From a virus (taxonomy: Duplodnaviria > Heunggongvirae > Uroviricota > Caudoviricetes): 37,331 nt of DNA. The stretch spans positions 1 to 37,331 of the IMG/VR virus record IMGVR_UViG_2537561506_000022; one strand, written 5' to 3'. The notes beneath the pieces were generated by a model that was not told where the DNA came from, made no database searches, and worked only from the letters and a program-made list of their open reading frames with translations. The position numbers and the translations under genes are program-made. Below are positions 5,412-21,571 of this stretch, in pieces; the first letter of the stretch is position 1, and the number at the start of each line of letters is the position of its first letter.

Positions 5412-5474
5412 GAAGAACAAAAGGCGTGTACATATTACACGTCTTTAATACAATTGAAAAACGCCACATTACTG

Positions 5475-6065: not shown

Positions 6066-6076
6066 AGGTGTTTAAC

Positions 6077-9000
6077 TCACCGCATCACCGGATCCACCTG
6101 GTTTATTAGTGGCGCAATCCAGAACAGGTTATTGCCGGGTATCAGGGTTCGGACATTATGCACAATACGATCACCGGCATCACCATTCAACACTCCTGCG
6201 GTCACATCAATGATGCTATCCGCAAGACCAAATGACGGTCCGAATAGAGATCCTACGAATCCACGACTGGCATACCTAGACTGTGTGCCAGTGCCAAATA
6301 AAGCCCCCAGCCCAACAGCACCACCAGTAGCCTTTTCAGCCATATTGTTATATTCCATCAATGGCCCAAGAATACCGGATCTATCTATACCCTCAAGCAC
6401 CAGCTTCTCTGGTGACCAGTCAACATTTTTCCCTTTCGATGCTTCTTTAAGCGCATAGACCAGTGAGCCAAGAGCAATCTGAAATGCAGTGCCATAATAA
6501 AATTGCGCAGTTCCTTCCTGTAACCCACCAAGTAGCGCACGGTTGTATGAAGCCGTTGTGAATGATTTAAACTGAAATATCGTTCGCCCCATTGGAGTAC
6601 TCGCCCATAAAGGTGTGTCACCAATACCGGGGGTGATGATAGTGTTATTAACGTCTTTCAGAACCGCTGACTGGAATACTCCGGCAACGTACTGATCGTC
6701 CCATTTATCAAAGTTACCAATGTGCCATCCATCAATTACCTCACCATGTTTCTCGAACTCACTGCGAATACGCGCAGCCATATTGTCGTTGATACCGAGT
6801 TTTGCCATGCGACGTGCAGAAAACGCACCAGACAAAATACCGTCTGACGTGAGCATTCCGTTCATGGATTTGTTTATGTCATTAAATCGATCCATGAGTG
6901 TCAGCTTGCCGAAGGCATCAGTAATTCGCTCCATTCCTGCTTCGACTGCTGTTGTCCTGGAAGAACTGTCAACAAGATCACCAATTGCACGAGAACGTGA
7001 ATGTAGTACAGTTTCCAATCCAATCCCCATCTTCAACATCTCTTCTTTGCTGGCCTTAAATGCCGGTGATTGGGATATCTGAGAAGCATAGCCTTTCATG
7101 GAGTTACGGAAACCATTAACCATAACCCCTCTGGCCAGATCTGGAATAGCTGATACTGTCATTCCACCGAGTTTGGTCGTGAAGTTCACATCCCGCAGAA
7201 AAGCGCCAGCACGAACAAAAAACGAAGACGGGTCATCAGGCATACCATATGTACCAACAAGACGATCGCGTAATGCTGTTATGTCTCTGAGATCATTTGC
7301 TCTTGATTTTGAAAGTCTGGACTGTTCTTTCCGTAATTCCTTTTCGTACTTTCGCATTAATGAATCGAGTTTACCCTGAGGAACAACTTCACCATTGCTC
7401 TCATAACGTGCTTTCAGATTTGCCACACTTTCGTCATATTTCGCCTTTATTTTTTCAGGCACTTCCCGTAACAGACTGTCATATTCGTCCTCAATTAATT
7501 GCAGACGCTCTGTCATAGTTCGTTTGCCAAATGTTCTCGTCAACTCAATTTCTGCTGCCGCTTCACGGATATGACGTTGTAGAACGTAATTCACATCACT
7601 TTCGAGATAATCCCTGATAAGACTATCAGGCACATTTAATGTTCTTTCTTTCGTACTACCTGCGGCTTTTACAGAAAATACGCTGACAAAATCCTGTGGA
7701 ACCTTAGCACCAGTAATTTTATTAATTACGATATCCGCTGCAATTTCAGCATCCTCAGGATCCAGTGTTTTATTGCCTCTCGACCACCAGTCAACCAAAA
7801 TACGTCGAAATTTATCGCGTTCACTGATTATTTTTCCAACTTTATATATACGTGGGAAATAGCTTGCCTGGCCTAATGCTTTCAGTTCTTCATCTGGCGG
7901 CAATAAACCAAGCTTTTGCATTTCAACCTTCACCCGATTTAATACAGTTCGCATCGCCTGCGCCGTTTCCTGAACAACAGGATTAGCATGCACATCACCG
8001 CTTCGCATAGCATTCCCAACCTGCTGACGAAATGAATCAAAACTCATGTCACCACCATCAGCTTTATACTTTGCGTATGCCTGTTTATTTCCGACAACAA
8101 CAGCAGCTTCTTCACGCTGCCATCCACGTGTACGGGTTTCTACAGCTACCGGTGTTTCAATCCCCCTTTCATTTCCTTTAAGGGTGAAATTATTTTCGGC
8201 TAACTCCAGCGTTGTTTTTCGCACTGTCTTGGACGGAGACTCCATTAACCTTGTCAAAGGAGTAAGATAGCTCCCTGCTTTCCATGCAGCCTTTCCAACC
8301 ACCCCACCGGAAACAGGGGTTAAATCATCCAGAGTCGCTGTATCAATTTTCATAGCACCAACACTACCACCATCAGAAAGCGAAGCGGCAGCCCTGTCAG
8401 TCGCTGATGTAATGCTCATATTATCAAGAGCATCAGCAACCTCACGCGTGGCTGCAGCCCGGACGGATGGCGAAAGCGCAACACCAGCACTGGCAAACAC
8501 GCCGCTCATCATCGCACCCGCTGCAATGTGAGCGGCACTTTCACCCCATGAGCGTGTTATTTGCTGATTATTCAGCACAACCTCGCTTAATGCTGTACCG
8601 GCTGCACCAATCGCAATCTGTGAGCCAATACGCGCCAGTGCCCCTCCTTGAGCACCGGGGATAAACATTGACGCAACAGTAACCGGATCCATTCCCGCAG
8701 CAATACTGGCAAGGGTTCCAACTACGCCAGCATCAGACAATAAACGTCTGTCTTCATTTTCATCATCTATCTGCTGCTTAATCCACGCCGTTTCCTCTGG
8801 CGATCGGGAATCTGCAAATTTCGCCCCCCAGTATTCATAACCGTGCAACTCATTTTTATCAGCATATGGGTTATAACCTTCGACCGGTTCAAACTGTCTG
8901 GCTGGTCGGAAAAAACCAGCCAGAATATTGTTCTGTCGCATTGCAGCCCCCCATACGGAAGGCTCCGGTGGCAATGGCTCAGGATTAGCCCCTTCCGGAA

Positions 9001-9091
9001 GGGCAACATCAAACCCAGTTTGTTCCGGCAAAACATTACCTGACGGGATCAGTCCGTTATTAAGATCTTCAGCTTGTGCATAAACTGGCAT
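6077..9091 (-). CDS. Internal virion / DNA-ejection protein (T7 gp16-position, 1004 aa)
   Basis: Large ORF at the end of the gp8-to-gp16 synteny block; Gly/Ala/Ser-rich segments typical of ejection proteins. Confidence 0.7.
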   Translation of the reverse strand: MPVYAQAEDLNNGLIPSGNVLPEQTGFDVALPEGANPEPLPPEPSVWGAAMRQNNILAGFFRPARQFEPVEGYNPYADKNELHGYEYWGAKFADSRSPEETAWIKQQIDDENEDRRLLSDAGVVGTLASIAAGMDPVTVASMFIPGAQGGALARIGSQIAIGAAGTALSEVVLNNQQITRSWGESAAHIAAGAMMSGVFASAGVALSPSVRAAATREVADALDNMSITSATDRAAASLSDGGSVGAMKIDTATLDDLTPVSGGVVGKAAWKAGSYLTPLTRLMESPSKTVRKTTLELAENNFTLKGNERGIETPVAVETRTRGWQREEAAVVVGNKQAYAKYKADGGDMSFDSFRQQVGNAMRSGDVHANPVVQETAQAMRTVLNRVKVEMQKLGLLPPDEELKALGQASYFPRIYKVGKIISERDKFRRILVDWWSRGNKTLDPEDAEIAADIVINKITGAKVPQDFVSVFSVKAAGSTKERTLNVPDSLIRDYLESDVNYVLQRHIREAAAEIELTRTFGKRTMTERLQLIEDEYDSLLREVPEKIKAKYDESVANLKARYESNGEVVPQGKLDSLMRKYEKELRKEQSRLSKSRANDLRDITALRDRLVGTYGMPDDPSSFFVRAGAFLRDVNFTTKLGGMTVSAIPDLARGVMVNGFRNSMKGYASQISQSPAFKASKEEMLKMGIGLETVLHSRSRAIGDLVDSSSRTTAVEAGMERITDAFGKLTLMDRFNDINKSMNGMLTSDGILSGAFSARRMAKLGINDNMAARIRSEFEKHGEVIDGWHIGNFDKWDDQYVAGVFQSAVLKDVNNTIITPGIGDTPLWASTPMGRTIFQFKSFTTASYNRALLGGLQEGTAQFYYGTAFQIALGSLVYALKEASKGKNVDWSPEKLVLEGIDRSGILGPLMEYNNMAEKATGGAVGLGALFGTGTQSRYASRGFVGSLFGPSFGLADSIIDVTAGVLNGDAGDRIVHNVRTLIPGNNLFWIAPLINQVDPVMR

Positions 9092-11808
9092 TATTTAGAT
9101 CCCCACGAAAAGTAATCTTTAAATTTGTCCATACGTTCGTTATGCAGGCGCTGATACTGCTCATCCAGAGCGCGATGCTTGTCTTTGAAGTTTCGTATAG
9201 CCTGTCCACGCATAATTTCTTCCTGCTCGTACTGCTCCCGTTCCTGCTGCATTTTCTTATAAGGTTCCCAATCTTCTAGTGATGGTTCCCAACGCATAGG
9301 ACGCCCATGTTTGTTATAAAACGGCTGGACCCGATCGATGCCATTTTCATCCTTAGTTCTTACCATAATGGCGTAATCACCATTACGAGGTGTTAACACG
9401 TCAGGGGTTATGAATAATTCTCCATTAATACGACTCTCAGGGGTTTTTGTCTCAACTACAGGAGCATTACCTGACGTGATCCCAAGCAACGTCGGACTGG
9501 TTGTTATAATCTCTTTGCGCTCACCGTACATCAGCCGTTCTTTTTCAGCTTTCCACTGCGCCGCCTGCCAGCCTGACGGCCCATATTGATAAAGCGCCTC
9601 CGGTGCATATTTCATAAACTGCGCTTCTCCGTTAACCTCGCTGATACTCCAGGTGCGGGCTATCTGCTGGTTGGTCATTTGCTTCGCTACGTCAGCGTTA
9701 CCACCAGCAACGCGGTAGTTAATGTCATACAGCGTCTGATAGTCATTACGGAATCTAGCTGCTTCCGGCGTCTGGTCATCCGCAGACGGATCCCAACGGA
9801 ACCACTGCGCCATATTGCTGACAGCAGAATTCATCGCCTTGCTGCGATTATTTTTGTACTCTTTTGAACTCTGCGTTGATGCCAATTGAGCTTTAAGAGC
9901 ATCGGTCTGGTTGTACGTCAGGTTCTGCGCCTGCTCGATAGCCGCATCAGCAGACATGCCAGAATCTGTTAGTTGCTTAACAGTCAGATAAAAACCCTGC
10001 ATATCCTTCGGCATATTTCCAATAGATGCATTGTCTGTTTCATATAACCGACTAAACAAATTCGCTGCATTTTTAACCACTTCCTGATTGCTGGATCTGG
10101 ATACTGCTGAAAGCTGCGTGATGACCTGCGAAGGCATGATGCCAGTCTGAGCCACAAGCCGAACAACCCCATCATGAGTGGAGGCATCATTAATACGAAA
10201 GTTCTGCGCCATTTCTGTGTAATCAGCAGCTTTCTGCATTGATTTGTTGCTTGGGTCTAATTTTTCACCTATTGTCAGCGCCTCATTGAATCTGCGTGAA
10301 TCACGTTGCGCCTGAATTGCTTCATTTGATCGCTGAAGCAATGCAGACAATTTTCCGTAAGCATCGAGTTTTAACGCATAGTGAGGATCGTTAACCTCAG
10401 GCTTCACTTTCTGCATTTCTTCTTGCTGCTGAGAAGGAGGTAAATACTGAATTGCCTGGAATATTCTCGCGTTATCAATCGCTATATCCAGTTGATTGAT
10501 TATTTTATCTGCATTTTTTCCATACCCCCTGATGATAGTCTCCTGAGCCGGTATATAATCTGGAACCTCACCGTTATATAGCTGGGCCATGGTGTTATTA
10601 ATAGCTGGCTCAAGCTGTTCTAATATTAACTTCCTTTGCTTTTCTATCTGACTATTAGCAAGGTTATCTATTTGATAAATAGTCAGCGGATCCATTCCAG
10701 TTTTATTTTTTCTATATCGGGAAAGCCACCCTTGTGTTTCTGATGGAAGATTTCGGATAAATTCTTCTTCTGATATTTCACCTTTACGTGGATCACCGAC
10801 TTTGGCGATCAGTTTATCCACGTTACCCATCCCCCAGTTATATGCTGCTCCGGTCAATATTTCGGAGCCGTACTTACCATACAGTTGATTTACATAGTCA
10901 CTGGCGAGCATTTCATGCTGTTGTTCGTCCGTAGGGTTGTATTTAACGCCACGCTTGGCCGCCAGTTCTTTCCCTGTGCCCGGCATTAACTGGTATTTCC
11001 CCTGGGCTCTCTCTCCAGAAGATGTTATCGGTCCTTCAAGAAGACTACCATCAGGATTAAAATGTCGATCACCTGATTCAACAAGGCGTATGGCACGCAT
11101 GTCCATGCCTCCAGAATCATTTTTCTGAAACAGACCATTTAGCCATCCTTCTGGATTGGCAGCGGCATAATTCTTCGCCCGCATTTCTGTGGCACGGCGA
11201 TCATCACTTTCTATTTCTTCCAGAATGCGTTCTTGTGACCATCCCCTGGCAGCTCCATATCTAGCAATGGCTACCATTCTGGAATTTCTGGCTAAAGTGG
11301 CAGTTTGCGGGTCATTCCAGGCATCCGCTTCATTTTGTATCCATAATTTTCTCGTTGCCTGATTTTGCTCATCTTCATAGGCATTTGTCTGCCCTATCTC
11401 ATGTCTGAGAACTCCAGTACTGAACTGAATTTTCTGTGTTCTGGCTTGTTGCAAAAACATATTTCTTGCTGCTTCATCAGTCAATGAAGCAGCTATTTCT
11501 TCCACATCCTGATCAAATCCAGATATGTACTCTTGCCCCTTACCAATCGCATTTTTGCCTTGTTGTGCATAAAAACCGGTTTGAGGGTTATAAAGACGTT
11601 CATTGCTGCGCTGATTAAGCTGAAGGATGGCATCCTGAGACAATGCAACATTCGCTTTCTGCCTGGCTTCACCATATGCCACCGCATACTGATCTGCGAC
11701 ATTCGCCAGCACCTGACCTGCTTGAGGAACATCGAAGATCTGAAAACCACCGGTTTGCACACCACGACTTTGCACCTGGCGTCCGGATGTAGTAGGAACA
11801 ACTGGCAT
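9091..11808 (-). CDS. Internal virion protein with lytic transglycosylase (SLT) domain (T7 gp15/gp16-like, 905 aa)
   Basis: Contains VESGDRHFNPDG...GKYQLMPGTG, matching the SLT ES...YQLM catalytic signature; position in the T7-like block. Confidence 0.8.
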   Translation of the reverse strand: MPVVPTTSGRQVQSRGVQTGGFQIFDVPQAGQVLANVADQYAVAYGEARQKANVALSQDAILQLNQRSNERLYNPQTGFYAQQGKNAIGKGQEYISGFDQDVEEIAASLTDEAARNMFLQQARTQKIQFSTGVLRHEIGQTNAYEDEQNQATRKLWIQNEADAWNDPQTATLARNSRMVAIARYGAARGWSQERILEEIESDDRRATEMRAKNYAAANPEGWLNGLFQKNDSGGMDMRAIRLVESGDRHFNPDGSLLEGPITSSGERAQGKYQLMPGTGKELAAKRGVKYNPTDEQQHEMLASDYVNQLYGKYGSEILTGAAYNWGMGNVDKLIAKVGDPRKGEISEEEFIRNLPSETQGWLSRYRKNKTGMDPLTIYQIDNLANSQIEKQRKLILEQLEPAINNTMAQLYNGEVPDYIPAQETIIRGYGKNADKIINQLDIAIDNARIFQAIQYLPPSQQQEEMQKVKPEVNDPHYALKLDAYGKLSALLQRSNEAIQAQRDSRRFNEALTIGEKLDPSNKSMQKAADYTEMAQNFRINDASTHDGVVRLVAQTGIMPSQVITQLSAVSRSSNQEVVKNAANLFSRLYETDNASIGNMPKDMQGFYLTVKQLTDSGMSADAAIEQAQNLTYNQTDALKAQLASTQSSKEYKNNRSKAMNSAVSNMAQWFRWDPSADDQTPEAARFRNDYQTLYDINYRVAGGNADVAKQMTNQQIARTWSISEVNGEAQFMKYAPEALYQYGPSGWQAAQWKAEKERLMYGERKEIITTSPTLLGITSGNAPVVETKTPESRINGELFITPDVLTPRNGDYAIMVRTKDENGIDRVQPFYNKHGRPMRWEPSLEDWEPYKKMQQEREQYEQEEIMRGQAIRNFKDKHRALDEQYQRLHNERMDKFKDYFSWGSK

Positions 11809-12383
11809 CAGTAACCTCCTATTTTGAATCGGGAGTCAGAATTCATAAAACCTGAGTTAGATAACATTGGCGTCCCACCACTAGATGTACTTCCTTTAGA
11901 GAACGGACTCCACGTCCCACCAAACATCTGGTACGCACCGTATGCCTTCAGAGGCGCAGTGAGCAATGTTGTTGCTGCTCCCACATTCCCCTGTTTACGG
12001 GCTGAACTGGCTTCTGCTTTATAGTTGGCAGCCTGAACCTGATAACCGTAAGCCTCGCGTTGCGCGTTATTCACCGTCGTCAGCGAATCAAGAGCGCCAA
12101 ACTGGGCAGTGTCGCCAAATATATCCAGCGCGTTACCTGTAGATAAATCAGCGCCGGTAGCCCCCATTGTCGCCGCTTGTGTACCAAGCCGCTGTCGGGT
12201 CTCTCTGCGCCGTTGCTCAGCTTCAGCGTTACCTCTGTTTATTGCATCATTTGCCTGAGCTGTGGCTATATCTGCGTTCGCTTCTGCAACCTTCGAGGCA
12301 TATTTTCCCTGTTGGTACTGGGTGTATGCCTGAATGCCACTCATGGCGAGCATTGCGCCACCAGCAATAACCGGATCGCACAT
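11808..12383 (-). CDS. Internal virion protein B (T7 gp14-like)
   Basis: 191 aa; starts MC...AMSGIQAY like T7 gp14 (MCWAAAIPIAISGAQAI); Ala/Gln-rich. Confidence 0.55.
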   Translation of the reverse strand: MCDPVIAGGAMLAMSGIQAYTQYQQGKYASKVAEANADIATAQANDAINRGNAEAEQRRRETRQRLGTQAATMGATGADLSTGNALDIFGDTAQFGALDSLTTVNNAQREAYGYQVQAANYKAEASSARKQGNVGAATTLLTAPLKAYGAYQMFGGTWSPFSKGSTSSGGTPMLSNSGFMNSDSRFKIGGY

Positions 12384-12850: not shown

Positions 12851-15318
12851 AATCCCCCAACAGTAAGGCGAGGAATAACGGCAAGAACAGACAGCGGCAA
12901 CGGGTCAAGCTGACGGATTCTTACACGTCCGTTTTTGCCCCAGTTACTGTCCAGTTTCACTTCTACTTTTCCGGTAGCGTCATCAACAGGATCATCGTAG
13001 AACTCGAATTCACGCTGTGGATATTCGTACCATTTACCGCCTGGCGTAGTCGCCCAGATGCCGCGGCTGGCATTCACAACCAGAGTAACGGACGGGATCA
13101 CCTGTTTTTTGTCCAGCAGCGTTTCCTGTCCGTTAATGTTGATATCCAGTGTTTCGAATTCAGCAGTTATTGGCAGGCCGATGTGCACTACAGCCCCCGG
13201 TGATTCCAGCGTGACGGCACCTCCGGAAACCACTTTCTGTGGTTCCACGTTCGCATCAGAGAGAATGTTTACGGTCTGGCCTTCAAGATGAGACAGGCCT
13301 CCAAATGTCCGGCGCGCCATCTGCCAGTTCATGGTGGCCGCATTCCTGAGGGATGGCGGGACGTTCCTGTTGGCACGAACCACTACAGCGGTATTGCTGG
13401 TTACAGAAATAATGTCGCAACGTAATTCTTTTGACACTTCATCGCCAGTACCAGGATCAGTTCCGGCATAAGGGAACTGTAGTTGCGCGCCGACATCACT
13501 ACTGGTGAAGTACGCACCACCAGAAACACTGATTGTATATTCCGCGCGATAATCCCATTCGCCAGAACCACCAGTGATGGTCATCGTTCTGTCAGACGTA
13601 TTTCTTCCATCATAGCTAAGGCCAGAATCAACAAAGAAAGCATCTTCATCGCTGGTAAATAAACGGCTGGACAGTCTCTCGATGTATCTCACTGTTTGCC
13701 CGTTAACGGTTCTGTTAACGACGAAATACACCGCATCTTCATTGCCTTCGCTGATACTGCATGTGCTTTCATATTTTCCGGTACTGGATTGTGGTGCCCA
13801 TGCAAAAACCTGCTGATCACGCAAATAGGTCATCACCAGTAATTTACCGTCATCACGGATGCAGAAGGCGCTGGAGTAAGGGACTATCGAGAAGCACCAG
13901 TCAACAATGCTGTGCTTCTGAAAAAGATGATTGGCAAGGATAGTAAGGTCGTTCCCCTGATAGCCGTCAACATCGAATGAGTAGGCCAGATCACGGACAA
14001 CACTGCCTTTCTCCTGGACGAACAGAGCAATATTCGCCACGGCAATTGGTGGGACATTGCTCGAGCCATTTGATCCCTGAGAGCTGAATGCAAATGATGA
14101 TGGGGTAAGCACTTTGTTCTGGTCTCCAGTGATGACGTACTCACCTCCGGAAGTCAGCGCCACCAGCGAACCAACATCAATCAGGTGGCGGATCTCATTA
14201 ACCTGACGCCCGGCATAGGTGTAGATAATTCTGTCGTCATCCTGCGTAGGATTGCTTTTGCCAAAATCCTTATAATCACCAGTACGGCTGGCCCAGATAG
14301 TCTGAGGGAACGCAGTCGATGCGGCGAAGTAAAGACGTTGTTGATAATAAACAACAGTGCCAGGATAACCATTAACACTGTTCCAGGCATATTTAGCCCA
14401 TTTATAGCTGGCATTATCCTCGCCAACGACCTGCGAAGGGATATAGGAAATCACCTCGGCAGTTGCAGTAGTTCCATTTGCAGCAGAGATACGGGCAATG
14501 CCAAAACCACTGTGCAGATACTCCCACTCAATGCCGGTATCATCATCACCGGATCCGCCCCAGCCATCCCATGATGTGCCTTCTGTATGAGAAGGGCGCA
14601 AAGTGCCTGTTTTGCCTGCTGTAACGGCGCGATAGTAGTTACTGTCTGCACGGCGAATATCGCCAATCGACGTACTCTTACTGGTTTCCCATACCGGCAC
14701 TGAATCCACTGCAGGCTGTTCCAGATAGAACAATTTGCCTACCTGCTCCGCGCCAAAAATAGAGGCGTTTGCCGTTAACGTAATTGTCCCGGTGCTGGCG
14801 CTGGCATAAACCGTCACTGACTCGTCAATATTGATATCTTCAAATGGCCCGTTCTTCGTTACCACATCAACAAGTTGCCAGTTGTCATGCGCATAGCGCC
14901 GCAACTCTTTCGGCGGGTATTCCGGGTGAACCAGCGTAAGCACGTCAGCGCTTTGCGTGAATTTAATTCGGAACAGATCAGCTTCAGTATATGGCGTGGC
15001 AATTTCATAAATAACATTGCTGCTGTTCAGCACCAACGCACCATCTTTGATAACGCGCATGTACTGGTGTCCGAACTCCAGAGCATAGGTCTGAACCGTC
15101 GAGAACTGGAACGGGATCAGGCGGCATTTCCGATTTGGGTATTTGGCGGCACCAACAAAACGCGTACCAGGTCGATTCTCAACGCCGCCATACTGCCGCA
15201 CGATAAAGTTATCGCACTTGCGCAATGCCACCTGGTACTTCGCCATGTCGATACGACCATACAACGATGGTCCAATCTCACCACCGGCAAAGCTGGGCTG
15301 GATCCAACTGATAGCCAT
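12847..15318 (-). CDS. Tail tubular protein B / nozzle (T7 gp12-like, 823 aa)
   Basis: N-terminus MAISWIQPSFAGGEIGPSLYGRID resembles T7 gp12 MALISQSIKNLKGGISQQPD; size and position match. Confidence 0.7.
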   Translation of the reverse strand: MAISWIQPSFAGGEIGPSLYGRIDMAKYQVALRKCDNFIVRQYGGVENRPGTRFVGAAKYPNRKCRLIPFQFSTVQTYALEFGHQYMRVIKDGALVLNSSNVIYEIATPYTEADLFRIKFTQSADVLTLVHPEYPPKELRRYAHDNWQLVDVVTKNGPFEDINIDESVTVYASASTGTITLTANASIFGAEQVGKLFYLEQPAVDSVPVWETSKSTSIGDIRRADSNYYRAVTAGKTGTLRPSHTEGTSWDGWGGSGDDDTGIEWEYLHSGFGIARISAANGTTATAEVISYIPSQVVGEDNASYKWAKYAWNSVNGYPGTVVYYQQRLYFAASTAFPQTIWASRTGDYKDFGKSNPTQDDDRIIYTYAGRQVNEIRHLIDVGSLVALTSGGEYVITGDQNKVLTPSSFAFSSQGSNGSSNVPPIAVANIALFVQEKGSVVRDLAYSFDVDGYQGNDLTILANHLFQKHSIVDWCFSIVPYSSAFCIRDDGKLLVMTYLRDQQVFAWAPQSSTGKYESTCSISEGNEDAVYFVVNRTVNGQTVRYIERLSSRLFTSDEDAFFVDSGLSYDGRNTSDRTMTITGGSGEWDYRAEYTISVSGGAYFTSSDVGAQLQFPYAGTDPGTGDEVSKELRCDIISVTSNTAVVVRANRNVPPSLRNAATMNWQMARRTFGGLSHLEGQTVNILSDANVEPQKVVSGGAVTLESPGAVVHIGLPITAEFETLDININGQETLLDKKQVIPSVTLVVNASRGIWATTPGGKWYEYPQREFEFYDDPVDDATGKVEVKLDSNWGKNGRVRIRQLDPLPLSVLAVIPRLTVGGF

Positions 15319-15926
15319 CAGGACAACCTCGCAATGGTAAACTCGTCAACCGGTGGCTGTGGTTCCTGTGATTCATTCTGGCTATGCGAGCCAGCACTAA
15401 GAATCACGCGATTGTACATATTGATGGCAAACGTACCGAGGTCTGCATTCCCAGTCAGCGCCATGTTAATAGCTGCCGCAAGACGCCAGGCCAACGCCTC
15501 CATAAAAATGGCATCAAACATGTTCACATCTGTAACGCGAGAGACATACTTGAGCCATGCCTGAGGCTGGTCTGTGTAGATCAACTTTCCTGTTCCGTTG
15601 GTGTCTGCACCAACTTCGTACTGAACGCGCATTGGTGCTGCTGGATTGCGTACACCAGGAAGCATAATTTCAGTAATGCGCAGACAATCGGACGGGTACT
15701 GGTACGCATATTCCCAGTCAGGCGGTGGATTGCTCGTATCTGCAAGCGCCACGCGTTTGGTAGCAAAGTTCCAGTCAAAATCAGAAAGCACAGCATCACG
15801 GCAGGCCTCAAAGTGCAGCGAACATTCCCCCGCTTCCTTGCTGGCTTCCGTCAGGCTGTTAATGCTGCGGCTATTGCCAATATTGGACAGCGCACGATTA
15901 CAGATCTCTACTACAGAGGCCATCAC
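15318..15926 (-). CDS. Tail tubular protein A (T7 gp11-like, 202 aa)
   Basis: NRALSNIGNSRSINSLTE...WNFA aligns with T7 gp11 NDILASIGEPPVSTLE...WTFN; immediately precedes the gp12-like gene. Confidence 0.65.
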   Translation of the reverse strand: MMASVVEICNRALSNIGNSRSINSLTEASKEAGECSLHFEACRDAVLSDFDWNFATKRVALADTSNPPPDWEYAYQYPSDCLRITEIMLPGVRNPAAPMRVQYEVGADTNGTGKLIYTDQPQAWLKYVSRVTDVNMFDAIFMEALAWRLAAAINMALTGNADLGTFAINMYNRVILSAGSHSQNESQEPQPPVDEFTIARLS

Positions 15927-16246
15927 TCACCTCCGTTACCGTACAGAGTTTCAGCCGCTGATTTTTCTACATCCCCGGAAACAGGAGCGATCGCCATATC
16001 AGTGATCTGCAGATCGGCGCTGCGATTAACGCCATCGTCAGTTTCTCTGGCTGACAGGCCTCGAATAACAGCCTTTGCAGTTATCATCACTTCTGTTCCG
16101 ACGCCCTTAGGTTGCGCCTTCAGCTTATTCAATGTGTCGTTATTCAGCGTGATGCACAGCCCCCACGGGTATTCATCGCGAGTTCTGGTTTCTCCGCTCT
16201 CATCCTGGTAGCTGTCAGTGCCGGTTTTGAGGTTTACGAGTTCCAT
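15923..16246 (-). CDS. Hypothetical virion-module protein
   Basis: ATG at 16244..16246 (reverse) with AGGAG 6 nt upstream (track ORF starts at GTG 16252); a GGGGC-TTCG-GCCCC hairpin lies just upstream. Confidence 0.5.
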   Translation of the reverse strand: MELVNLKTGTDSYQDESGETRTRDEYPWGLCITLNNDTLNKLKAQPKGVGTEVMITAKAVIRGLSARETDDGVNRSADLQITDMAIAPVSGDVEKSAAETLYGNGGE

Positions 16247-16296
16247 ATACACTCCTGCAATAAAGGGGCCGAAGCCCCTTGTCTGATTCGCGAGGC

Positions 16297-16632
16297 TTAC
16301 ACGCCCAGTTCTTTACGCTTATCTGCGATCTTCTCGCGGAGCGTTTCGGCTTTGGCGTTATGGTGTGGCTTCTCGTTAAAGAGCAATTCGTACTCTTCAC
16401 GGAGCTTATCCAGTTCACCATCATCTGACACATCGTTGATGATTTTGGTGCTGGTTGCTGCCATTGACACCTTTCCTGCAACTTTTGCTTTTGCCTGTCT
16501 GGCTGCATCGTTAACAGGTTCCAGTGCGCTACCAGGCTCACCTTCGTATTCGATTTCTGCCCCCTCCGGCCACAGAGTGTTATGGATATGAGAGAGGCGC
16601 AGAACGCGGTATCTTGGTTTCTCACCTGACAT
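16297..16632 (-). CDS. Hypothetical virion-module protein (charged, coiled-coil-like)
   Basis: ATG at 16630..16632 (reverse) with GGTGA 6 nt upstream; preferred over the overlapping alternative-frame ORF 16215..16625. Confidence 0.5.
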   Translation of the reverse strand: MSGEKPRYRVLRLSHIHNTLWPEGAEIEYEGEPGSALEPVNDAARQAKAKVAGKVSMAATSTKIINDVSDDGELDKLREEYELLFNEKPHHNAKAETLREKIADKRKELGV

Positions 16633-16642
16633 CGATATCACC

Positions 16643-17080
16643 TTAACCAGTTACTTTTGAGCGGATCGGGTACGGCGTATTGGCATCAACATCCAGACTG
16701 ATACCCGCAGTGAATTTGCCGGCCGTTAGTGGGCCAGTTGCGACGGAGTAGTTAACACGCAGATATCGCTGAACACCGGCTGGCACCTTTGCAGAAACAA
16801 CTCGCTTACCTGCTGTCAGGGTGGCCTTTGCCAACGCACCACTATCATAAATAGTGGTCCAAGAGCTGTTATTCTCACTCGTCTGCAACTGGATGTTTAC
16901 AGTTGCCTCACCACTTGCCGTGGCGGCTTCGTTAACCAGCACCCAAAACTCAAGCGGGTAACCCACACCGATATCGCGACGGTTTCCATCAATTGGACCG
17001 AGATCGATTACGTCAGTAGAAGCCGCGGTATTCGTAACCGCCTGAGCTTCGGAGAACATCAACAGTTTGTCGGTGATCAT
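16643..17080 (-). CDS. Hypothetical virion protein directly after the capsid gene (possible decoration protein)
   Basis: 145 aa, Thr/Ala/Val-rich; GGAG RBS; position only. Confidence 0.5.
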   Translation of the reverse strand: MITDKLLMFSEAQAVTNTAASTDVIDLGPIDGNRRDIGVGYPLEFWVLVNEAATASGEATVNIQLQTSENNSSWTTIYDSGALAKATLTAGKRVVSAKVPAGVQRYLRVNYSVATGPLTAGKFTAGISLDVDANTPYPIRSKVTG

Positions 17081-17131
17081 CTTCTTTCTCCATTAGTGGG
17101 TCTGTTACGACCCACAGGTTAATAACAGGCG

Positions 17132-18124
17132 TTACACCACGCGGGCTTCTGTTTCCAGAAGCGCATCAGTTTCACGGATTGGTACACCACGGAATGAAGT
17201 CCACCACTCGCCTTCTGTCTCTTTTACGCTGATCGCCAGAGATGTTTTCTCCAGAGATTGCAGATCAAGAGCCTGGCCTACAGTGCGGTTCATGTAGAAC
17301 ACCGGGCGACCCATGCCACGATTTGGAATGCGATGCAGTGCTTTAACCATCAACTTCGCAATATTTGCGGCAGAGGAAGGTTCTGAAAGATTGCTGACAT
17401 CGATGTTTGCAATGCGAACAACATAACGCCAGTCACGCAGAGCAAGTCCGTTGTCCCATTTGTAATGGGTACGGTAGCCTTCGTACTTGCCGCCATTAGC
17501 ATCTTCCAGTGTCACCTGGCCTTTATCTTCCATCTGAATGCCAGCCTTCTGCCCTTTCGGGAAGATGCCATGCACTGTGTTTTCGCCCCACACCACTAAC
17601 CAGATTGAGGTGTTATCTGTACCCGTGCCACCAGCATCAATGATGTTCTGAGCATTACCTGCAGACAGGCTGGAATAGCGGGAGGACAGTCCCATAAACT
17701 GCTGAGGGTTAACGCTGGAATCACCATAAAACAGCGTCTGCGCCATCTGCTGATTCATCGCTTCAATAAATGCGCGGTCTTCAGACAGGCGGAATTCGGC
17801 GGTATTGCCGTTCAGATCAGCCAGTGACTTATCGACTTCAGCATAGGTTTCCAGCATGCCAACGGAATCGGTTACCTGCACTGTGGTTGATTTGCTTGGC
17901 TGTACGCCATAGTTCAGCAAACGCCAGGTAGCTGAAGGTAAACCAGAACGAATGGTGGTTCGGTGTCCGGTAGGAAGGTTCCCTTCGACAAAAGGCATAT
18001 CCTGAAGGATCGGGTTAGTTTGACCGAGAAGCTCGATAATCTTATCGACTTTCCCGTTTGGATCGACGCGCTTACCCCAGTCAGCCAGCGTTAGCGCAGT
18101 TAAGCCTTTAACAGCCATTGTCAT
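17132..18124 (-). CDS. Major capsid protein
   Basis: 330-aa ORF immediately after the scaffold gene in portal-scaffold-capsid order. Confidence 0.8.
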   Translation of the reverse strand: MTMAVKGLTALTLADWGKRVDPNGKVDKIIELLGQTNPILQDMPFVEGNLPTGHRTTIRSGLPSATWRLLNYGVQPSKSTTVQVTDSVGMLETYAEVDKSLADLNGNTAEFRLSEDRAFIEAMNQQMAQTLFYGDSSVNPQQFMGLSSRYSSLSAGNAQNIIDAGGTGTDNTSIWLVVWGENTVHGIFPKGQKAGIQMEDKGQVTLEDANGGKYEGYRTHYKWDNGLALRDWRYVVRIANIDVSNLSEPSSAANIAKLMVKALHRIPNRGMGRPVFYMNRTVGQALDLQSLEKTSLAISVKETEGEWWTSFRGVPIRETDALLETEARVV

Positions 18125-18132
18125 TTCCTCTC

Positions 18133-18834
18133 TTATTTGCCATAGAGCACTTCGGCCGCACTACGCTGGCCTTCATTACCACCGGTGACCATGCCATCTT
18201 CAGACATCGCCTTTCCGATTTTCACGAACGTTTTGACCAGATCAGGGTGATTACCCAGTCCGGTGGTGTTCAGATATTCTTTGAGTTCAGGTGTCCCGAA
18301 CTGGTCAAGCGCACGCTGTGCGGCGCTAAGGTTAGAAATCAACTTGTCGCCACCGATTTCTTTGTCAGCTTTTACATCAGCAGCCCACTGCTCGGTTGTT
18401 TTCTGCCAGGCTTCTGCCTGGCGCTGCTGCACACCTGCCAGAATCTTCGGATAAACATCAACCAGCTTTTGCGCTTGCTCGTTGGTCAGGTTAAGTTCTC
18501 GCGCCACCGGCTCGAACTCCTTCAACGCTTCTGTATCCAGCTCTACGCCTTCGGCAGCCTGAAACTCGTACTTCTCAGGCGCACCCTCTGGTTTATCGCC
18601 GTCCTTTTTTTCATCCTGCTTATCGTTTTCAGGCTTTTTGTCATCAGCAGGTTTATCGCCATCAGCAACAGGTTGTGGCTTATCACCTTCCTGTTGTGAT
18701 GGATCACCAACTGGAGCAGGGTTATCACCTGCAGGCGCTGACGGTTCTGACGCAGCCGGAGCTGCTCCACCATCGACTGGTTGCTCATTGCAAAGACGGC
18801 GATACAGCAAACGCTCAAATAAATTCATGATCAC
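18133..18834 (-). CDS. Scaffolding protein
   Basis: Highly acidic, Pro/Asp/Lys-rich low-complexity N-terminal half; position between portal and capsid (T7 gp9-like). Confidence 0.65.
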   Translation of the reverse strand: MIMNLFERLLYRRLCNEQPVDGGAAPAASEPSAPAGDNPAPVGDPSQQEGDKPQPVADGDKPADDKKPENDKQDEKKDGDKPEGAPEKYEFQAAEGVELDTEALKEFEPVARELNLTNEQAQKLVDVYPKILAGVQQRQAEAWQKTTEQWAADVKADKEIGGDKLISNLSAAQRALDQFGTPELKEYLNTTGLGNHPDLVKTFVKIGKAMSEDGMVTGGNEGQRSAAEVLYGK

Positions 18835-19127
18835 TCCTGTTCACTGGCCTCTTTGGCCATCTTCAAATACTGTTCAGGGCAATGAGCCATAACGCGCTGA
18901 AACAGTTCCAGCGCCAGATTGCGTTGCCCCTCATTAAATGCCATTGCCATAGCATCCATCGGAGAGATAGCGGAAAACACCCGGCCTTTCTCCAGCACAG
19001 ACCAGACAACGCGACGCCCCTGTTCACTGCTCATGACAAAGCGAATGTCATCAATTTCACGCTGTGCCATGTCACGTTGCTTACGGGCGTTTTCTTCTTT
19101 CAGTTGATCGTCTTCGTAATCTGTCAT
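18831..19127 (-). CDS. Hypothetical head-module protein
   Basis: 98-aa charged ORF translationally coupled between portal and scaffold genes. Confidence 0.5.
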   Translation of the reverse strand: MTDYEDDQLKEENARKQRDMAQREIDDIRFVMSSEQGRRVVWSVLEKGRVFSAISPMDAMAMAFNEGQRNLALELFQRVMAHCPEQYLKMAKEASEQE

Positions 19128-20803
19128 TGTGATTGCCCACCCTGACCACTAACTGCATTCGCCATAGCTGACAAAACACTCGGATCCGAAGTTTTAGCTT
19201 CGCTTAGCGTCTTGGCACCCTGTGCCGCCGCCATCCCCATCGCCATCATTTGTTGCTGCTGTTGCTGCTGTGCCCGTTGCTGGCGAGCCTGATCAACCTG
19301 TTCCTGCGGAACAATGACGGTTGGAGACACTCCGGACATATCAGCGAATGCATCGATCGCCTGATCAACGTTGAGTTTGTCGAGAGCTTCTGGTTTCGCT
19401 TGCGCAAGTTGACCAATGAAGTTAACCGTGGACGCCAGACTGGACAGGCCGATAGACTTCTGCGCCTGAGCCATGACGGAAATGTATTCGACCTTCAGGG
19501 GCATGCCTTCCATCGCGTCAGGCGGTGGCGGCAGCATGTTTTTACGCACCATCATCGAGAAAGCGCGGTCAATGAGAGGATTAAGACATTCGTCGTTCAG
19601 ACGCTCCAGAACCGGCCCCAACATCAGAAGTTTTTCTTCTTTCATTTCGATCACCGCTTCAACAGGCATCGAGCGGGTATTGATGTTCTGCAACATCATG
19701 AACAGATCGACAAAGTAGGCGCTGTTAATGATTTGACGAGTGTCCTGAATGTCTGCTACCAGATCTGCTGTACTGGGGTTAACCAGATAAGCAGGCCTGA
19801 AACCATCCTGACCAGTAATCTGATCGATATACGTGATGTCGCCAGGAAGAAGGGAGGCGCGCTGATTCTTGAGGGAAGTCGGAGCAACCATCGGCGGATT
19901 GGTGGCTTTATCAATCAACTGCGACTTGCGCTTCTGAAGAAGCTGCAATGCCTTAACAGGTCCAAGCGCCAGCATACCCGGGCATGATGATCCATAAACA
20001 TCTTCGCCGTTAACTTCCCAGCGCGGAGCCATAATTGGAAACTCATCGAATCCGGACTCACGCAACAACTTGTCGTTATCGCCGCCAACCTCGTAATAAA
20101 CCGATTTGAATGGCTTGTTCTTGCTATCCAGCTTCGATGTATCGCGGTCAATGTTCGGGTAAACCGAATGCATCACCTCAATCCACTTCTCGTAGGTGCC
20201 AATTTCCCACATGCTTTTTACGTATTCGCTGACGTTATTTAGCCCGAACTCCTGAACAAGCTGACGAACAGTCATAGAGAACTTGCGAAAACAGGTGTCC
20301 ACACTGCCACGAGGTGAGTTAGCCAGGTAGTAACTACCTATCGGGAATGGCATTGTGCGAATGATGTCCTCGTCATCCTCCAGCACCGCCATTGCACCAG
20401 TGCTGTATGTGCCGAGGCTTCCGTATAACTGCGGAAGAGACTGGTAGAGATTCGAATTATTGAACATATCATTCATGCGGTTCTGCACCGCCTCAAGCCA
20501 CAACTTAACAGGGCCATAATCCATCATTTCAGGATCTGGCGTAGCCAGGCGAAACCACGGACGCGCGGGGCTTGTGATGCCTGACATCATGCCGCTGGCG
20601 AGAGTGCGCGCCGCCATAGTCCCGGTCGAATCAATAATGCGTGTATTGCGTCGATCGTTACGGTTGACCTCAGAAGTCAGAAAGCGGGAACCACGCGGGT
20701 TGATGTAATCACTCAACTCGCGCCAGTGCGGCTCGAACGACTGACGCTCGCTTTCAAGTTGTGCGAACTGTTTGTTCAATCGCTCTTTAGTTGTTTCCGC
20801 CAT
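19124..20803 (-). CDS. Portal (head-tail connector) protein, T7 gp8-like
   Basis: 559 aa; Gln/Ala/Met-rich C-terminus (RQQRAQQQQQQQMMAMGMAAAQGA) resembles the T7 gp8 C-terminus. Confidence 0.8.
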   Translation of the reverse strand: MAETTKERLNKQFAQLESERQSFEPHWRELSDYINPRGSRFLTSEVNRNDRRNTRIIDSTGTMAARTLASGMMSGITSPARPWFRLATPDPEMMDYGPVKLWLEAVQNRMNDMFNNSNLYQSLPQLYGSLGTYSTGAMAVLEDDEDIIRTMPFPIGSYYLANSPRGSVDTCFRKFSMTVRQLVQEFGLNNVSEYVKSMWEIGTYEKWIEVMHSVYPNIDRDTSKLDSKNKPFKSVYYEVGGDNDKLLRESGFDEFPIMAPRWEVNGEDVYGSSCPGMLALGPVKALQLLQKRKSQLIDKATNPPMVAPTSLKNQRASLLPGDITYIDQITGQDGFRPAYLVNPSTADLVADIQDTRQIINSAYFVDLFMMLQNINTRSMPVEAVIEMKEEKLLMLGPVLERLNDECLNPLIDRAFSMMVRKNMLPPPPDAMEGMPLKVEYISVMAQAQKSIGLSSLASTVNFIGQLAQAKPEALDKLNVDQAIDAFADMSGVSPTVIVPQEQVDQARQQRAQQQQQQQMMAMGMAAAQGAKTLSEAKTSDPSVLSAMANAVSGQGGQSQ

Positions 20804-20817
20804 TTCAATGACTCCGG

Positions 20818-21024
20818 TTACTGACCAAGCAGCGTTTTACCGCTGGTATTAGCGGTTGATGTGTCGCCCTGAGAACCGGTAAGCAGCGTAGAACTACGAC
20901 CAGCAGCAGCGCGACGGCGACGTGTTTCTTCGTCGCGGGCATCAACAACGGCGGCATCCTGCTCCTGTGGTGCTGCCTGAACTTCTGGTGTTGCAGGCAC
21001 TGATGGTGAGCTACCCATGCACAT
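20818..21024 (-). CDS. Small Ala/Thr/Ser-rich protein upstream of portal
   Basis: ATG with GGAG 8 nt upstream; preferred over the overlapping frame 20805..21044, whose translation is His/Arg/Cys-rich and implausible. Confidence 0.4.
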   Translation of the reverse strand: MCMGSSPSVPATPEVQAAPQEQDAAVVDARDEETRRRRAAAGRSSTLLTGSQGDTSTANTSGKTLLGQ

Positions 21025-21114
21025 ATCAATGACTCCGTACGCAATTAAATTATTACCAATTTAACCACATATGATTTATTTATCGTAGATAGTTGACATT
21101 TAACGCACAAATTA

Positions 21115-21528: not shown

Positions 21529-21571
21529 GAATCACGCCTAAGGACCGTGATGCCAGAAGTTCCAGGTGCTT

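Follow-up and report, generated by a model that had tools for sequence, protein, structure and literature searches.

In a stretch of viral DNA of 37,331 nucleotides (nt), hereafter the window, a sequence-only reading of positions 6077–21024 had proposed virion genes in the order of T7, in a temperate phage. Our analysis indicates that this region is very probably the virion (late) operon of a temperate, TL-2011b-type podophage of the epsilon15 group, resident in an E. coli chromosome. The comparison to temperate podophages suggested by that reading found Escherichia phage TL-2011b at 98.6% nucleotide identity, with 99% of the length of the region covered. TL-2011b (NC_019445 / JQ011317) is an isolated phage, induced from EHEC O103:H25; it shares with the window the integrase, the layout of an arc/ant island and both ejection genes, whose 905-aa and 1004-aa products are 99% identical, and differs in the receptor-binding part of the tailspike (window 1–656 without match, 657–1593 89% identical) and in several replaced segments of the early region. 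The ejection-gene segment, 6077–11808, is 100% identical in prophages of RefSeq E. coli chromosomes, and at least 80% of it is present in 45 of 5426 complete genomes. Phage phiV10 is 98% identical to the region over 61% of it, a match that corresponds to window 11902–21024, and covers 58% of window 1–25000 at 97% identity. By ICTV practice, the genus-level threshold is 70% nucleotide similarity. NCBI taxonomy carries TL-2011b as unclassified Caudoviricetes, and PMC11522302 places it in Uetakevirus.

The genes of the operon, with the two terminase genes upstream of it, are as follows:

23661–24335, minus strand: terminase small subunit, 224 aa (phrog_51, E 2.6e-58; 77% identical to epsilon15 TerS)
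22189–23664, minus strand: terminase large subunit, 491 aa (phrog_2, E 3.2e-52; 94% identical to epsilon15 TerL)
20818–21024, minus strand: 68-aa homologue of epsilon15 gp3 (88% identical; phrog_831)
19124–20803, minus strand: portal of the T7 gp8 family, 559 aa (PF12236 Head-tail_con, E 7e-186)
18831–19127, minus strand: 98-aa Bbp19-like protein (PF25181, E 2.8e-17; 66% identical to epsilon15 gp5)
18133–18834, minus strand: 233-aa candidate scaffolding protein, in the slot between the portal and capsid genes
17132–18124, minus strand: major capsid protein of the epsilon15 GP7 family, 330 aa (PF20911, E 2e-149)
16643–17080, minus strand: Bbp16-family capsid cement protein, 145 aa (PF21190, E 5.6e-49)
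16297–16632, minus strand: 111-aa protein (phrog_590, E 3.9e-61)
15923–16252, minus strand: Gp10-like protein, 109 aa, labelled ‘capsid staple’ (PF21628, E 7e-52)
15318–15926, minus strand: tail adaptor with predicted T7 gp11-type fold, 202 aa (predicted fold and phmmer)
12847–15318, minus strand: T7 gp12-type tail nozzle, 823 aa (phmmer, family profile and hhalign)
12383–12850, minus strand: T7 gp13-like internal virion protein A, 155 aa (phrog_308, E 2.5e-62)
11808–12383, minus strand: internal virion protein B of the T7 gp14 family, 191 aa (PF24072 T7_gp14)
9091–11808, minus strand: ejection protein with lytic transglycosylase in the gp15 position, 905 aa (PF01464 SLT)
6077–9091, minus strand: ejection protein of the T7 gp16 family without N-terminal SLT, 1004 aa (phrog_342, E 1.4e-209)

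The proposed T7 order from gp8 to gp16 is present on the minus strand of 6077–21024, as portal, scaffold-like protein, capsid, adaptor, nozzle and four internal virion proteins. The genes are also collinear with epsilon15 (TerS-TerL-gp3-portal-gp5-gp6-capsid-gp8-gp9-gp10-gp11-gp12-gp13-gp14). Every window ORF in this stretch except the phrog_590 gene has as its best BLASTP match the epsilon15 gene at the same position, with gene-by-gene identities from TerS through gp14 of 36% to 94%. Salmonella phage epsilon15 and Escherichia phage phiV10, both of genus Uetakevirus, resemble the window in three respects: their genes run in the same order from the terminase as far as the gp14-like gene, their tailspikes have the same N-terminal anchor, and their backbone is temperate as well. 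Where the window encodes two ejection proteins (905 and 1004 aa), they encode three (of 842, 634 and 918 aa in the case of epsilon15), and epsilon15 is only 36–43% identical to the window in the block of capsid, cement and Gp10-like genes. The arrangement is the pattern of the epsilon15/phiV10/TL-2011b group and no new chimera; it recurs across a large, old lineage that includes epsilon15, BPP-1, BcepC6B, CP2 and Carin-1.

Both terminase genes lie upstream of the portal gene, a departure from T7 that had been remarked on, and neither subunit has any similarity to its T7 counterpart (small subunit versus gp18, large subunit versus gp19). The portal and T7 gp8 each match the family that fits the other best (phrog_449 for T7 gp8, phrog_332 for the portal); Smith-Waterman alignment of the two proteins gives a z of 9.2. 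The 233-aa protein is labelled a peptidase/protease in databases, a label that goes back to a remark on similarity in the epsilon15 entry, and it has no protease-family match in Pfam or NCBIfam, nor was it assigned to any family. Its N-terminal ~85 residues are rich in Pro, Asp and Lys and vary in length among homologues, and its AF2 model, of low confidence (pLDDT 43.5), shows helices throughout its C-terminal two thirds and no globular fold. Its position and composition suggest a role as scaffold.

The capsid protein matches the equivalog profile NF045672 (MCP_gp7_epsi_15) at E 9e-124, with 412.9 bits against a cut-off of 75. It falls in phrog_212, not phrog_267, and has no similarity to T7 gp10; as judged by sequence, the head is outside the T7 family. 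The three small extra genes called between capsid and tail tubular A are present, at 16643–17080, 16297–16632 and 15923–16252, and are head accessory genes of the epsilon15 group, encoding the Bbp16-family cement, phrog_590 and Gp10-like proteins. The cement protein is 36% identical to its homologue epsilon15 gp8, which has a length of 130 aa, as does the protein to which the epsilon15 ‘staple’ density has been reassigned (PMC9207676). Annotations of TL-2011b and of RefSeq E. coli give the phrog_590 gene a length of 336 nt. The longest ORF in this middle slot, of 136 aa (16215–16625), has no family match and was rejected as spurious, the real gene being in another frame. The Gp10-like protein is 43% identical to epsilon15 gp10. 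It has a C-terminal tail motif in common with the scaffold candidate, co-varying across seven phages.

The tail components have their closest solved structures in the tails of Carin-1 (PDB 8CK1) and Legionella phage LME-1 (PDB 9EFK), phages with other hosts that were compared for tail components only. In phmmer searches, the adaptor matches 8ck1_E (‘Connector Protein’) at E 6.6e-26 and the nozzle matches 8ck1_A (‘Tail Nozzle’) at E 1e-216; the corresponding values for LME-1 are 3e-5 and 3e-15. An AF2 model of the adaptor, of moderate confidence (pLDDT 64), was compared with known structures by Foldseek, giving the Carin-1 tail (E 7e-13), LME-1 (E 3e-7), T7 gp11 (7box_M, E 1.7e-6, probability 1.0, TM 0.58) and KP32 tail tubular protein A (E 5e-5). 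Of the 50 matches listed, 22 reach E <= 0.001; each of these is a structure of a phage tail or portal-tail and, where the protein is described, an adaptor or tubular-A protein. The predicted fold supports a link of the adaptor to T7 gp11. A family profile of the nozzle, built from 30 sequences, matches a 793-aa ‘nozzle gp13’ chain at E 1e-5 and, by one-to-one hhalign, residues 351–466 of T7 gp12 at E 9.6e-5, with a probability of only 58.5%. The resemblance to gp12 that had been placed at the termini is in the central domain; the matched residues fall inside the one reported in PMC4819975.

Directly after the nozzle gene come the gp13-like and gp14-like genes. T7 gp13 matches phrog_308 as well (E 1.1e-42), and the 155-aa protein has a sub-threshold match to Pfam PF11090 (E 0.096). 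The 191-aa protein scores 33.7 bits against PF24072, for which the cut-off is 27, and is labelled in RefSeq as ‘virion core protein, T7 gp14 family’; a mosaic junction with phiV10-type phages lies at 11902, within the 3′ end of its gene.

The SLT domain of the 905-aa protein was located by Pfam at residues 263–342, in agreement with the claim that it sits mid-protein and not at the N-terminus as in T7 gp16, and its motifs are intact (E244-S245, GKYQLMP at 270–276 and AYNWG at 322–326). Residues 1–252 are 42% identical to epsilon15 gp15, and the remainder is unrelated. Comparison with T7 gp15 gives E 0.002 by one-to-one BLASTP, a Smith-Waterman z of 4.7 and, by hhalign with a shallow profile (Neff 1.4), E 0.03 at a probability of 1.7%, which would make for a marginal link. 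The 1004-aa protein aligns over residues 24–1002 with positions 203–1225 of the 1235 of the phrog_342 profile, which is also the best PHROG of T7 gp16 (positions 4–1227). By tblastn, its C-terminal part matches proteins annotated ‘internal virion protein with endolysin domain’ in the T7-like Ralstonia phages RSB1 and RsoP1IDN (E 2e-7 to 2e-8, 22–25% identity). Neither the 1004-aa protein nor the 905-aa protein after residue 252 has significant similarity to epsilon15 gp15, gp16 or gp17; the pair stands in place of the epsilon15 gp15–17 set.

Beyond the ejection genes, the window contains an accessory island and the start of a receptor-binding gene:

1141–6076, no strand assigned: immI-like accessory island of 4.9 kb, which separates the tailspike gene from the ejection genes
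5454–6065, plus strand: low-GC 203-aa ORF, in the island
4950–5411, plus strand: Arc-domain protein, in the island
4692–4880, minus strand: Arc-like 62-aa ORF, in the island
3681–4619, minus strand: P22_AR_N antirepressor, in the island
2813–3352, plus strand: DUF4760 protein, in the island
1909–2604, plus strand: Bro-N protein, in the island
1–1140, minus strand: first 380 residues of the tailspike, whose gene is truncated at the window start

The fibre that had been counted with the module exists, but it is a tailspike, where T7 bears a fibre, and it lies at 1–1140, outside 6077–21024. Its N-terminus is 68% identical to that of epsilon15 gp20. Residues 1–~190 of the tailspike and residues ~5–196 of T7 gp17 match the same three families (phrog_1640, phrog_8460 and phrog_27277), and residues 220–277 match PF18668 (Tail_spike_N); Pfam PF03906 is unmatched and direct alignment to T7 gp17 is not significant. 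These transitive PHROG matches support a putative gp17-type N-terminal anchor. A 5-kb island parting fibre from module as in P22 had also been recognized, and the 4.9-kb island does so with its Arc-domain, P22-type antirepressor and Bro-N genes. In P22, immI (arc, ant) adjoins tailspike gene 9, and in the window an Arc-domain gene and a P22-type antirepressor gene likewise precede the tailspike gene; the Bro-N, DUF4760 and low-GC genes are extra to the P22 arrangement. Epsilon15 is without such an island and has two small genes only at that position.

The profile searches proposed as a check on T7 kinship divide the virion genes. Seven parts are linked to T7 by profile or fold, namely the portal, adaptor, nozzle, gp13-like protein, gp14-like protein, 1004-aa protein and tailspike anchor, whereas the capsid, cement and terminase proteins belong to non-T7 families. 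The N- and C-terminal resemblances read from the sequence for gp11, gp12, gp14 and gp17 hold as links at the level of profile or fold but not in pairwise alignment, where similarity to these T7 proteins is essentially nil. In BLASTP against T7, the SLT domain alone falls below E 0.001 in a collinear pair, beside one chance match between the portal and gp16 (E 0.001), and in Smith-Waterman alignments with shuffles only portal/gp8, 905/gp16, 905/gp15 and 1004/gp16 are significant. The T7 kinship of the tail and ejection genes of TL-2011b-type phages is real, distant and already known. Hardies et al. [quoted passage not shown] Because this kinship is published, the finding is correct and ordinary.

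Genes for a tyrosine integrase, an HTH repressor, RecT, a PD-(D/E)XK nuclease and DnaT-like and lambda-P replication proteins bear out the temperate, integrase-bearing lambdoid backbone that had been described. The search for a phage RNA polymerase, which had been called absent, agrees with that call: T7 RNA polymerase has no tblastn match in the window at E <= 1. T7 primase-helicase, gp2.5, ligase and lysozyme likewise have no tblastn match there, the matches of T7 DNA polymerase and exonuclease are at chance level (E 0.42 and 0.18), and no ORF exceeds 600 aa apart from those of the nozzle and the two ejection proteins. In T7, of the Autographiviridae, as in the window, the genes run from portal through scaffold slot, capsid, adaptor and nozzle to internal virion proteins A–D and fibre. 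The window differs in being temperate, in lacking the RNA polymerase and T7 replication genes, in its unrelated terminase upstream of the portal, in a capsid of another sequence family, in the three head accessory genes after the capsid gene, in the island before the tailspike gene and in the SLT domain, which T7 has at the gp16 N-terminus and the window in the protein at the gp15 position. The features that would mark Autographiviridae, an RNA polymerase, the replication genes, the capsid, the terminase family and its place after the fibre, are not those found here. These data support the description of a temperate lambdoid backbone that carries a T7-type virion module and encodes no phage RNA polymerase.

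Could this be a recent chimera, a lambdoid prophage that acquired its structural module from a true T7-like (Autographiviridae) phage? The gp8–gp17 gene order and the direct tblastn matches of the 1004-aa protein to T7-like Ralstonia phages would fit, but those matches are of low identity and limited to the C-terminal part, BLASTP identity to T7 is at noise level outside the SLT domain, the capsid, cement and terminase come from other families, and the arrangement is common to the old lineage named above. We consider such a capture very unlikely. A P22-like virion module is highly improbable. P22, likewise a temperate podophage, has its immI island beside the tailspike gene, and the island here, with its P22_AR_N and Arc domains, occupies the same place between ejection genes and tailspike; however, no virion protein of the window matches the Pfam families of P22 portal, coat, gp4, gp10, needle or tailspike head-binding domain, even at E up to 10 for the proteins searched with that limit, and the 50 adaptor matches listed from Foldseek, in which T7-type adaptors dominate, name no P22 structure.

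The module might instead be real and this copy a decaying, non-inducible prophage remnant, which we regard as unlikely. Several segments of the early region and island are replaced relative to TL-2011b and the E. coli 07_3636 prophage, and the related 07_3636 prophage has frameshifted and truncated early genes. Against this, all 16 late genes, from TerS to the 1004-aa gene, are intact, with TL-2011b lengths and about 98% identity, and the integrase, repressor and replication genes are intact as well. A late operon of an epsilon15-group temperate podophage accommodates the gene content and order, the family and fold assignments and the identity to known phages.

Roles in assembly and ejection can be proposed for these genes. 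Since no phage RNA polymerase is encoded, transcription would depend on host polymerase and phage regulators. An epsilon15-type HK97-fold capsid would be built round the T7-family portal with the aid of a separate helical scaffolding protein and the Bbp16-type cement protein, and DNA would be packaged by the terminase unrelated to T7 gp18/gp19. The tail genes are homologous to those of T7, and their products would form a T7-type tail on the portal, with a gp11-like adaptor ring and a gp12-like nozzle, to which O-antigen-specific tailspikes may dock via the gp17-type anchor. By analogy with T7 homologues and published epsilon15 tomography, the gp13-like protein may act as an assembly factor that aids loading of the 191-aa gp14-like, 905-aa and 1004-aa proteins into an internal core. 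At infection, these three proteins would be ejected to form a trans-envelope conduit, and the SLT domain would cleave peptidoglycan, allowing DNA to enter the cell.

From 6077 to 24335 every large open reading frame of the window lies on the minus strand in one close-packed series with frequent overlaps, followed by an accessory arc/ant gene island and then by the tailspike gene. The gene content and order are therefore as the sequence-only reading had described them, and the coordinates likewise place the terminase ahead of the portal and three small extra genes after the capsid, as it had noted.

Features of the late gene block and its neighbourhood, from high to low coordinates
23661–24335, minus strand: terminase small subunit
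22189–23664, minus strand: terminase large subunit
21452–21528, plus strand: tRNA-Arg (anticodon TCT), within the 1.1 kb that separates the terminase large-subunit gene from the 68-aa gene
20818–21024, minus strand: 68-aa protein
19124–20803, minus strand: portal, 559 aa
18831–19127, minus strand: 98-aa protein
18133–18834, minus strand: 233-aa protein, candidate scaffold
17132–18124, minus strand: capsid protein, 330 aa
16643–17080, minus strand: extra gene 1, 145-aa Bbp16-family protein (PF21190), likely cement
16297–16632, minus strand: extra gene 2, phrog_590 protein
15923–16252, minus strand: extra gene 3, 109-aa Gp10-like protein (PF21628)
15318–15926, minus strand: 202-aa protein, adaptor
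12847–15318, minus strand: 823-aa protein, nozzle
12383–12850, minus strand: 155-aa protein, gp13-like
11808–12383, minus strand: 191-aa protein, gp14-like
9091–11808, minus strand: 905-aa protein
6077–9091, minus strand: 1004-aa protein
within 4950–6065: 153-aa Arc-domain protein, C-terminal half matching phrog_1388
within 4950–6065: 203-aa ORF in a 32%-GC stretch, no Pfam match, phrog_8033
2813–3352: DUF4760 protein (Pfam)
1–1140, minus strand: tailspike, first 380 codons, the gene being cut by the window start

The tRNA-Arg(TCT) gene is antisense to the late operon and is also annotated in O157 typing phages 9 and 10 and in RefSeq E. coli.

The virion region is 98.6% identical to Escherichia phage TL-2011b across 99% of its length; phiV10-type phages match at 98%, starting only at position 11902, and the figure for epsilon15 is about 76%. 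Elsewhere the window encodes a tyrosine integrase, an HTH repressor, RecT with a PD-(D/E)XK nuclease, and DnaT-like and lambda-P replication genes, and a tblastn search of the window for T7 RNA polymerase, DNA polymerase, primase-helicase and other early proteins gave nothing significant. Thus, the window is a temperate prophage of the epsilon15 group and of the TL-2011b type, which has been sequenced and named and is often met in the genomes of E. coli, Salmonella and Citrobacter. Its segment 6077–11808 is 100% identical to prophages of several RefSeq E. coli chromosomes, and at least 80% of that segment is found in 45 of 5,426 complete genomes. RefSeq labels on neighbouring genes include ‘virion core protein, T7 gp14 family’, ‘Bbp16 family capsid cement protein’, ‘capsid staple protein’ and ‘portal protein’.

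Direct comparison with T7 is almost uninformative. BLASTP against gp8 to gp19 gives a few borderline matches, with the SLT domain as the only collinear pair (E 2e-4). Smith–Waterman scores of all window virion proteins against shuffles show a clear excess only for portal/gp8 (z 9.2), 905-aa/gp16 (z 7.2, from the SLT domain), 1004-aa/gp16 (z 6.2) and 905-aa/gp15 (z 4.7), and neither method detects anything for gp9, gp10, gp11, gp12, gp14, gp17, gp18 or gp19. Profiles and folds are more telling. The portal matches PF12236 (E 7e-186), and it and T7 gp8 each match the other's best PHROG. The nozzle is closely related to the ‘Tail Nozzle’ in the solved Carin-1 structure (E 1e-216), and its 30-sequence profile aligns to residues 351–466 of T7 gp12 (E 9.6e-5), within the central domain given as conserved by Hardies et al. 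(PMC4819975). The 155-aa protein shares phrog_308 with gp13, its match to the gp13 Pfam family being sub-threshold (E 0.096), and the 191-aa protein scores above the Pfam T7_gp14 cut-off. Residues 24–1002 of the 1004-aa protein align to positions 203–1225 of phrog_342, which is T7 gp16's own PHROG, and tblastn matches it to internal virion proteins of T7-like Ralstonia phages; it is a gp16 homologue without the N-terminal transglycosylase domain. The N-terminal ~190 residues of the tailspike and the gp17 N-terminus both match phrog_1640, phrog_8460 and phrog_27277. For the adaptor, hhalign of a 24-sequence alignment (Neff 2.2) gave no match to gp11 (E 0.92), and the link was obtained afterwards by fold search: an AF2 model (pLDDT 64) matches T7 gp11 (7box_M, E 1.7e-6, TM 0.58) and KP32 tail tubular protein A, with the Carin-1 ‘connector’ and LME-1 ranked ahead of gp11 and no P22 structure named among the matches listed. 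Pfam searches at E values up to 10 with the adaptor, nozzle, scaffold candidate and tailspike N-terminus returned no T7, P22 or protease family, and across the virion proteins NCBIfam named only the capsid. Nozzle relatives form a very large family (18,298 clusters at 50% identity, E ≤ 0.001), whose distant members mostly match best at residues ~300–822, the N-terminal ~300 residues being variable or carrying insertions. Literature searches on PDB code 8CK1 and on Bbp18/Bbp20 turned up nothing relevant, and PMC12391199 does not deal with the tail.

Resemblance to T7 thus holds in profiles and folds and mostly fails in direct alignment, and it does not extend to the whole block. The capsid protein belongs to the epsilon15 GP7 family (PF20911, NF045672), with no similarity to T7 gp10 beyond the expected common HK97 fold, and the terminase is unrelated to gp18/gp19. 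Recent capture of the module from a T7-like phage was rejected, with BLASTP identity to T7 at noise level apart from the SLT domain, and capsid, cement protein and terminase in other families. A P22-type virion module was rejected because the virion proteins match no P22 family in Pfam, although the likeness of the island to P22 immI is apt in both position and content. Across the profile searches, portal, gp12, gp13, gp14, gp16 and the gp17 anchor fall with T7, the capsid with epsilon15 and none with P22. A T7-like virion module in a temperate backbone without a phage RNA polymerase is confirmed as an observation and supported as an interpretation.

None of this is new: the epsilon15 group and T7 were put together in a ‘transient tail homology group’ by Hardies et al. 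2016 (PMC4819975), who identified epsilon15 gp12 as tubular tail B, found the standard internal virion proteins A and B, took gp17 for protein D, and named gp15/gp16 as candidates, still unconfirmed, for protein C. That the tail and ejection proteins of this group have T7 ancestry is thus published and the phage known, so the sequence-only reading was right but restates known biology; it carries little weight as discovery, and its use lies in annotation. The labels ‘peptidase’ on the scaffold candidate, ‘capsid staple’ on the Gp10-like protein, ‘endolysin’ on the 905-aa protein, and ‘hypothetical’ on the adaptor, nozzle and gp16-family protein look outdated or unsupported.

The ejection-protein cassette is not the one carried by phiV10 and epsilon15. 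The replaced sequence starts at a junction at 11902, ~30 codons short of the end of the gp14-like gene, and runs on until the 1004-aa gene ends; epsilon15 has three ejection proteins (842, 634 and 918 aa), whereas the window has two (905 and 1004 aa). Neither shows significant similarity to the epsilon15 ejection proteins except at the 905-aa N-terminus, where a 250-residue domain shared with epsilon15 gp15 (42% identity) precedes the SLT domain (residues 263–342, Pfam). The catalytic-type motifs E244-S245, GKYQLMP and AYNWG are all present. The sequence-only placement of the SLT domain held up: the transglycosylase sits in the gp15-position 905-aa protein, and the gp16 homologue lacks it. The 1004-aa protein is nearer to T7-type gp16 proteins than to epsilon15 gp17. 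The 905-aa link to T7 gp15 is marginal (hhalign, shallow alignment); the best 120 relatives listed are all at least 69% identical, so no deep profile could be built, and the result agrees with the report that a gp15 homologue in the epsilon15 group could not be confirmed (PMC4819975). The 905-aa family is common at ~70% identity in Salmonella, Citrobacter and Enterobacter genomes. Among phages, and TL-2011b aside, both proteins have their nearest relatives in Klebsiella phage Kp4865-1 and in a group of Vibrio podophages of 32 kb. As the TL-2011b type shows, an ejection-protein cassette can be swapped as a unit inside one phage group, and a transglycosylase domain can occupy the gp15-position protein. 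A second diverged block takes in the final ~12 codons of the scaffold candidate and everything from there to the Gp10-like gene inclusive, and has 36–43% identity to epsilon15 between flanking genes at 75–88%.

Judged from homology to T7 and from published work on epsilon15, tailspikes would bind, and presumably cleave, O-antigen; epsilon15-group tailspikes combine a conserved anchor with a variable receptor-binding domain (PMC11522302). The signal would be relayed through the gp11-type adaptor, and the core proteins (191, 905 and 1004 aa) would exit through portal and nozzle. The SLT domain would then open the peptidoglycan, the gp14-like and gp16-like proteins would form a conduit, and host RNA polymerase would transcribe the genome. 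A core stack implicated in tube formation has been described in the epsilon15 virion (PMC8954989), and so has a transient tail tube at infection (PMC4819975).

The three extra genes belong to the Bbp16, phrog_590 and Gp10-like families. Hryc and Baker (PMC9207676) found that a 130-aa protein, rather than gp10 with its 111 aa, fits the surface ‘staple’ density of epsilon15, and 130 aa is the length of the Bbp16-like epsilon15 gp8, so the 145-aa product is likely the cement protein here. The labels on the 109-aa protein are ‘capsid staple protein’ (RefSeq) and ‘Gp10-like, major coat protein-like’ (Pfam), of which the former is probably outdated.

For the 233-aa protein no relatives were detected outside its own family, and no protease family matched in Pfam or NCBIfam; its ‘peptidase/protease’ label goes back to an old remark on similarity in the epsilon15 record and has spread over thousands of homologues. 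The N-terminal third is a variable, low-complexity Pro/Asp/Lys-rich stretch and the remainder is all-helical in an AF2 model with no globular fold, whose pLDDT of 43.5 is below the usable level for fold search. Judged by its length, the 330-aa capsid protein seems too short for its own N-terminal assembly (delta) domain. Missing protease family, variable N-terminal stretch with helical remainder, and short capsid protein therefore favour a scaffolding role, a better reading than peptidase.

The candidate scaffold (18133–18170) and the Gp10-like protein (15923–15970) end in similar C-terminal tails, as do their counterparts in comparison loci L003, L005–L009 and L012.

Paired C-terminal tails, scaffold candidate / Gp10-like protein
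Window: RSAAEVLYGK / KSAAETLYGNGGE; similar parts SAAEVLYGK / SAAETLYGN
epsilon15: SDLISAFYPKK / ELKDAFYPDGEDD; similar parts SAFYPKK / DAFYPDG
BPP-1: GDARRLYAASNMNP / SAAQRLYGASSMSA; similar parts RRLYAASNMNP / QRLYGASSMSA
BcepC6B: EDARAAKLYDKS / EQRAAKFYANTPTT; similar parts RAAKLYDKS / RAAKFYANT
CP2: KPWNRMYPDM / NKYARMYADDPSMKD; similar parts NRMYPDM / ARMYADD

Of seven divergent phages compared, at least five have paired tails that are alike and change together. Change in step is seen in the window as in Tyrion, in epsilon15 as in a metagenomic relative, in BPP-1, in BcepC6B and in CP2; in BL94 it is weaker. Across all 5,040 permutations of the 16-residue tails from seven genomes, the true same-phage pairing had the highest summed alignment score; in ctEw122 the choice of scaffold gene is uncertain. 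Such co-variation suggests that both peptides may use one binding site on the capsid module. We tentatively raise the possibility, which we hold to be rather unlikely, that the Gp10-like protein, which may not be the surface ‘staple’, docks to the capsid-protein module through a C-terminal peptide mimicking the scaffold tail; if true, the family would be a scaffold-site ligand, for example an internal head protein or assembly factor. A literature search found no description of this tail motif. In epsilon15-type phages the Gp10-like gene follows the capsid and cement genes, whereas it lies right after the portal gene or one gene later, upstream of the scaffold gene, in BPP-1 (5920–6249), BcepC6B (4763–5341), CP2 (6001–6339), DC33 (6001–6327), ctEw122 (6007–6375) and BL94 (4354–4704). 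The Limnohabitans phage DC33 record (PQ492659.1) carries an Inoviridae taxonomy line, and its Gp10-like gene (38% identity over 96% of the query, E 9e-9) lies right after a 567-aa gene at the portal position; with this unannotated pair arranged as in the podophages compared, the classification looks wrong.

The island between the 1004-aa gene and the tailspike spans 4.9 kb, with genes on both strands encoding an Arc-domain protein, a small Arc-like ORF, a P22-type antirepressor, a Bro-N protein, a DUF4760 protein and a 32%-GC ORF. The 153-aa Arc-domain, 203-aa and DUF4760 proteins are moron-like cargo. The TL-2011b RefSeq record names the gene at the DUF4760 position a YafO-family toxin, an assignment for which Pfam gives no support in the window. 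The Bro-N protein and the antirepressor, on opposite strands, carry the same C-terminal domain of ~85 residues (phrog_450), encoded by a 270-nt inverted repeat (2336–2605 and 3680–3949, 92% complementary), and a third copy of this domain (1318–1593) makes up the bulk of a 91-aa ORF adjoining the tailspike gene.
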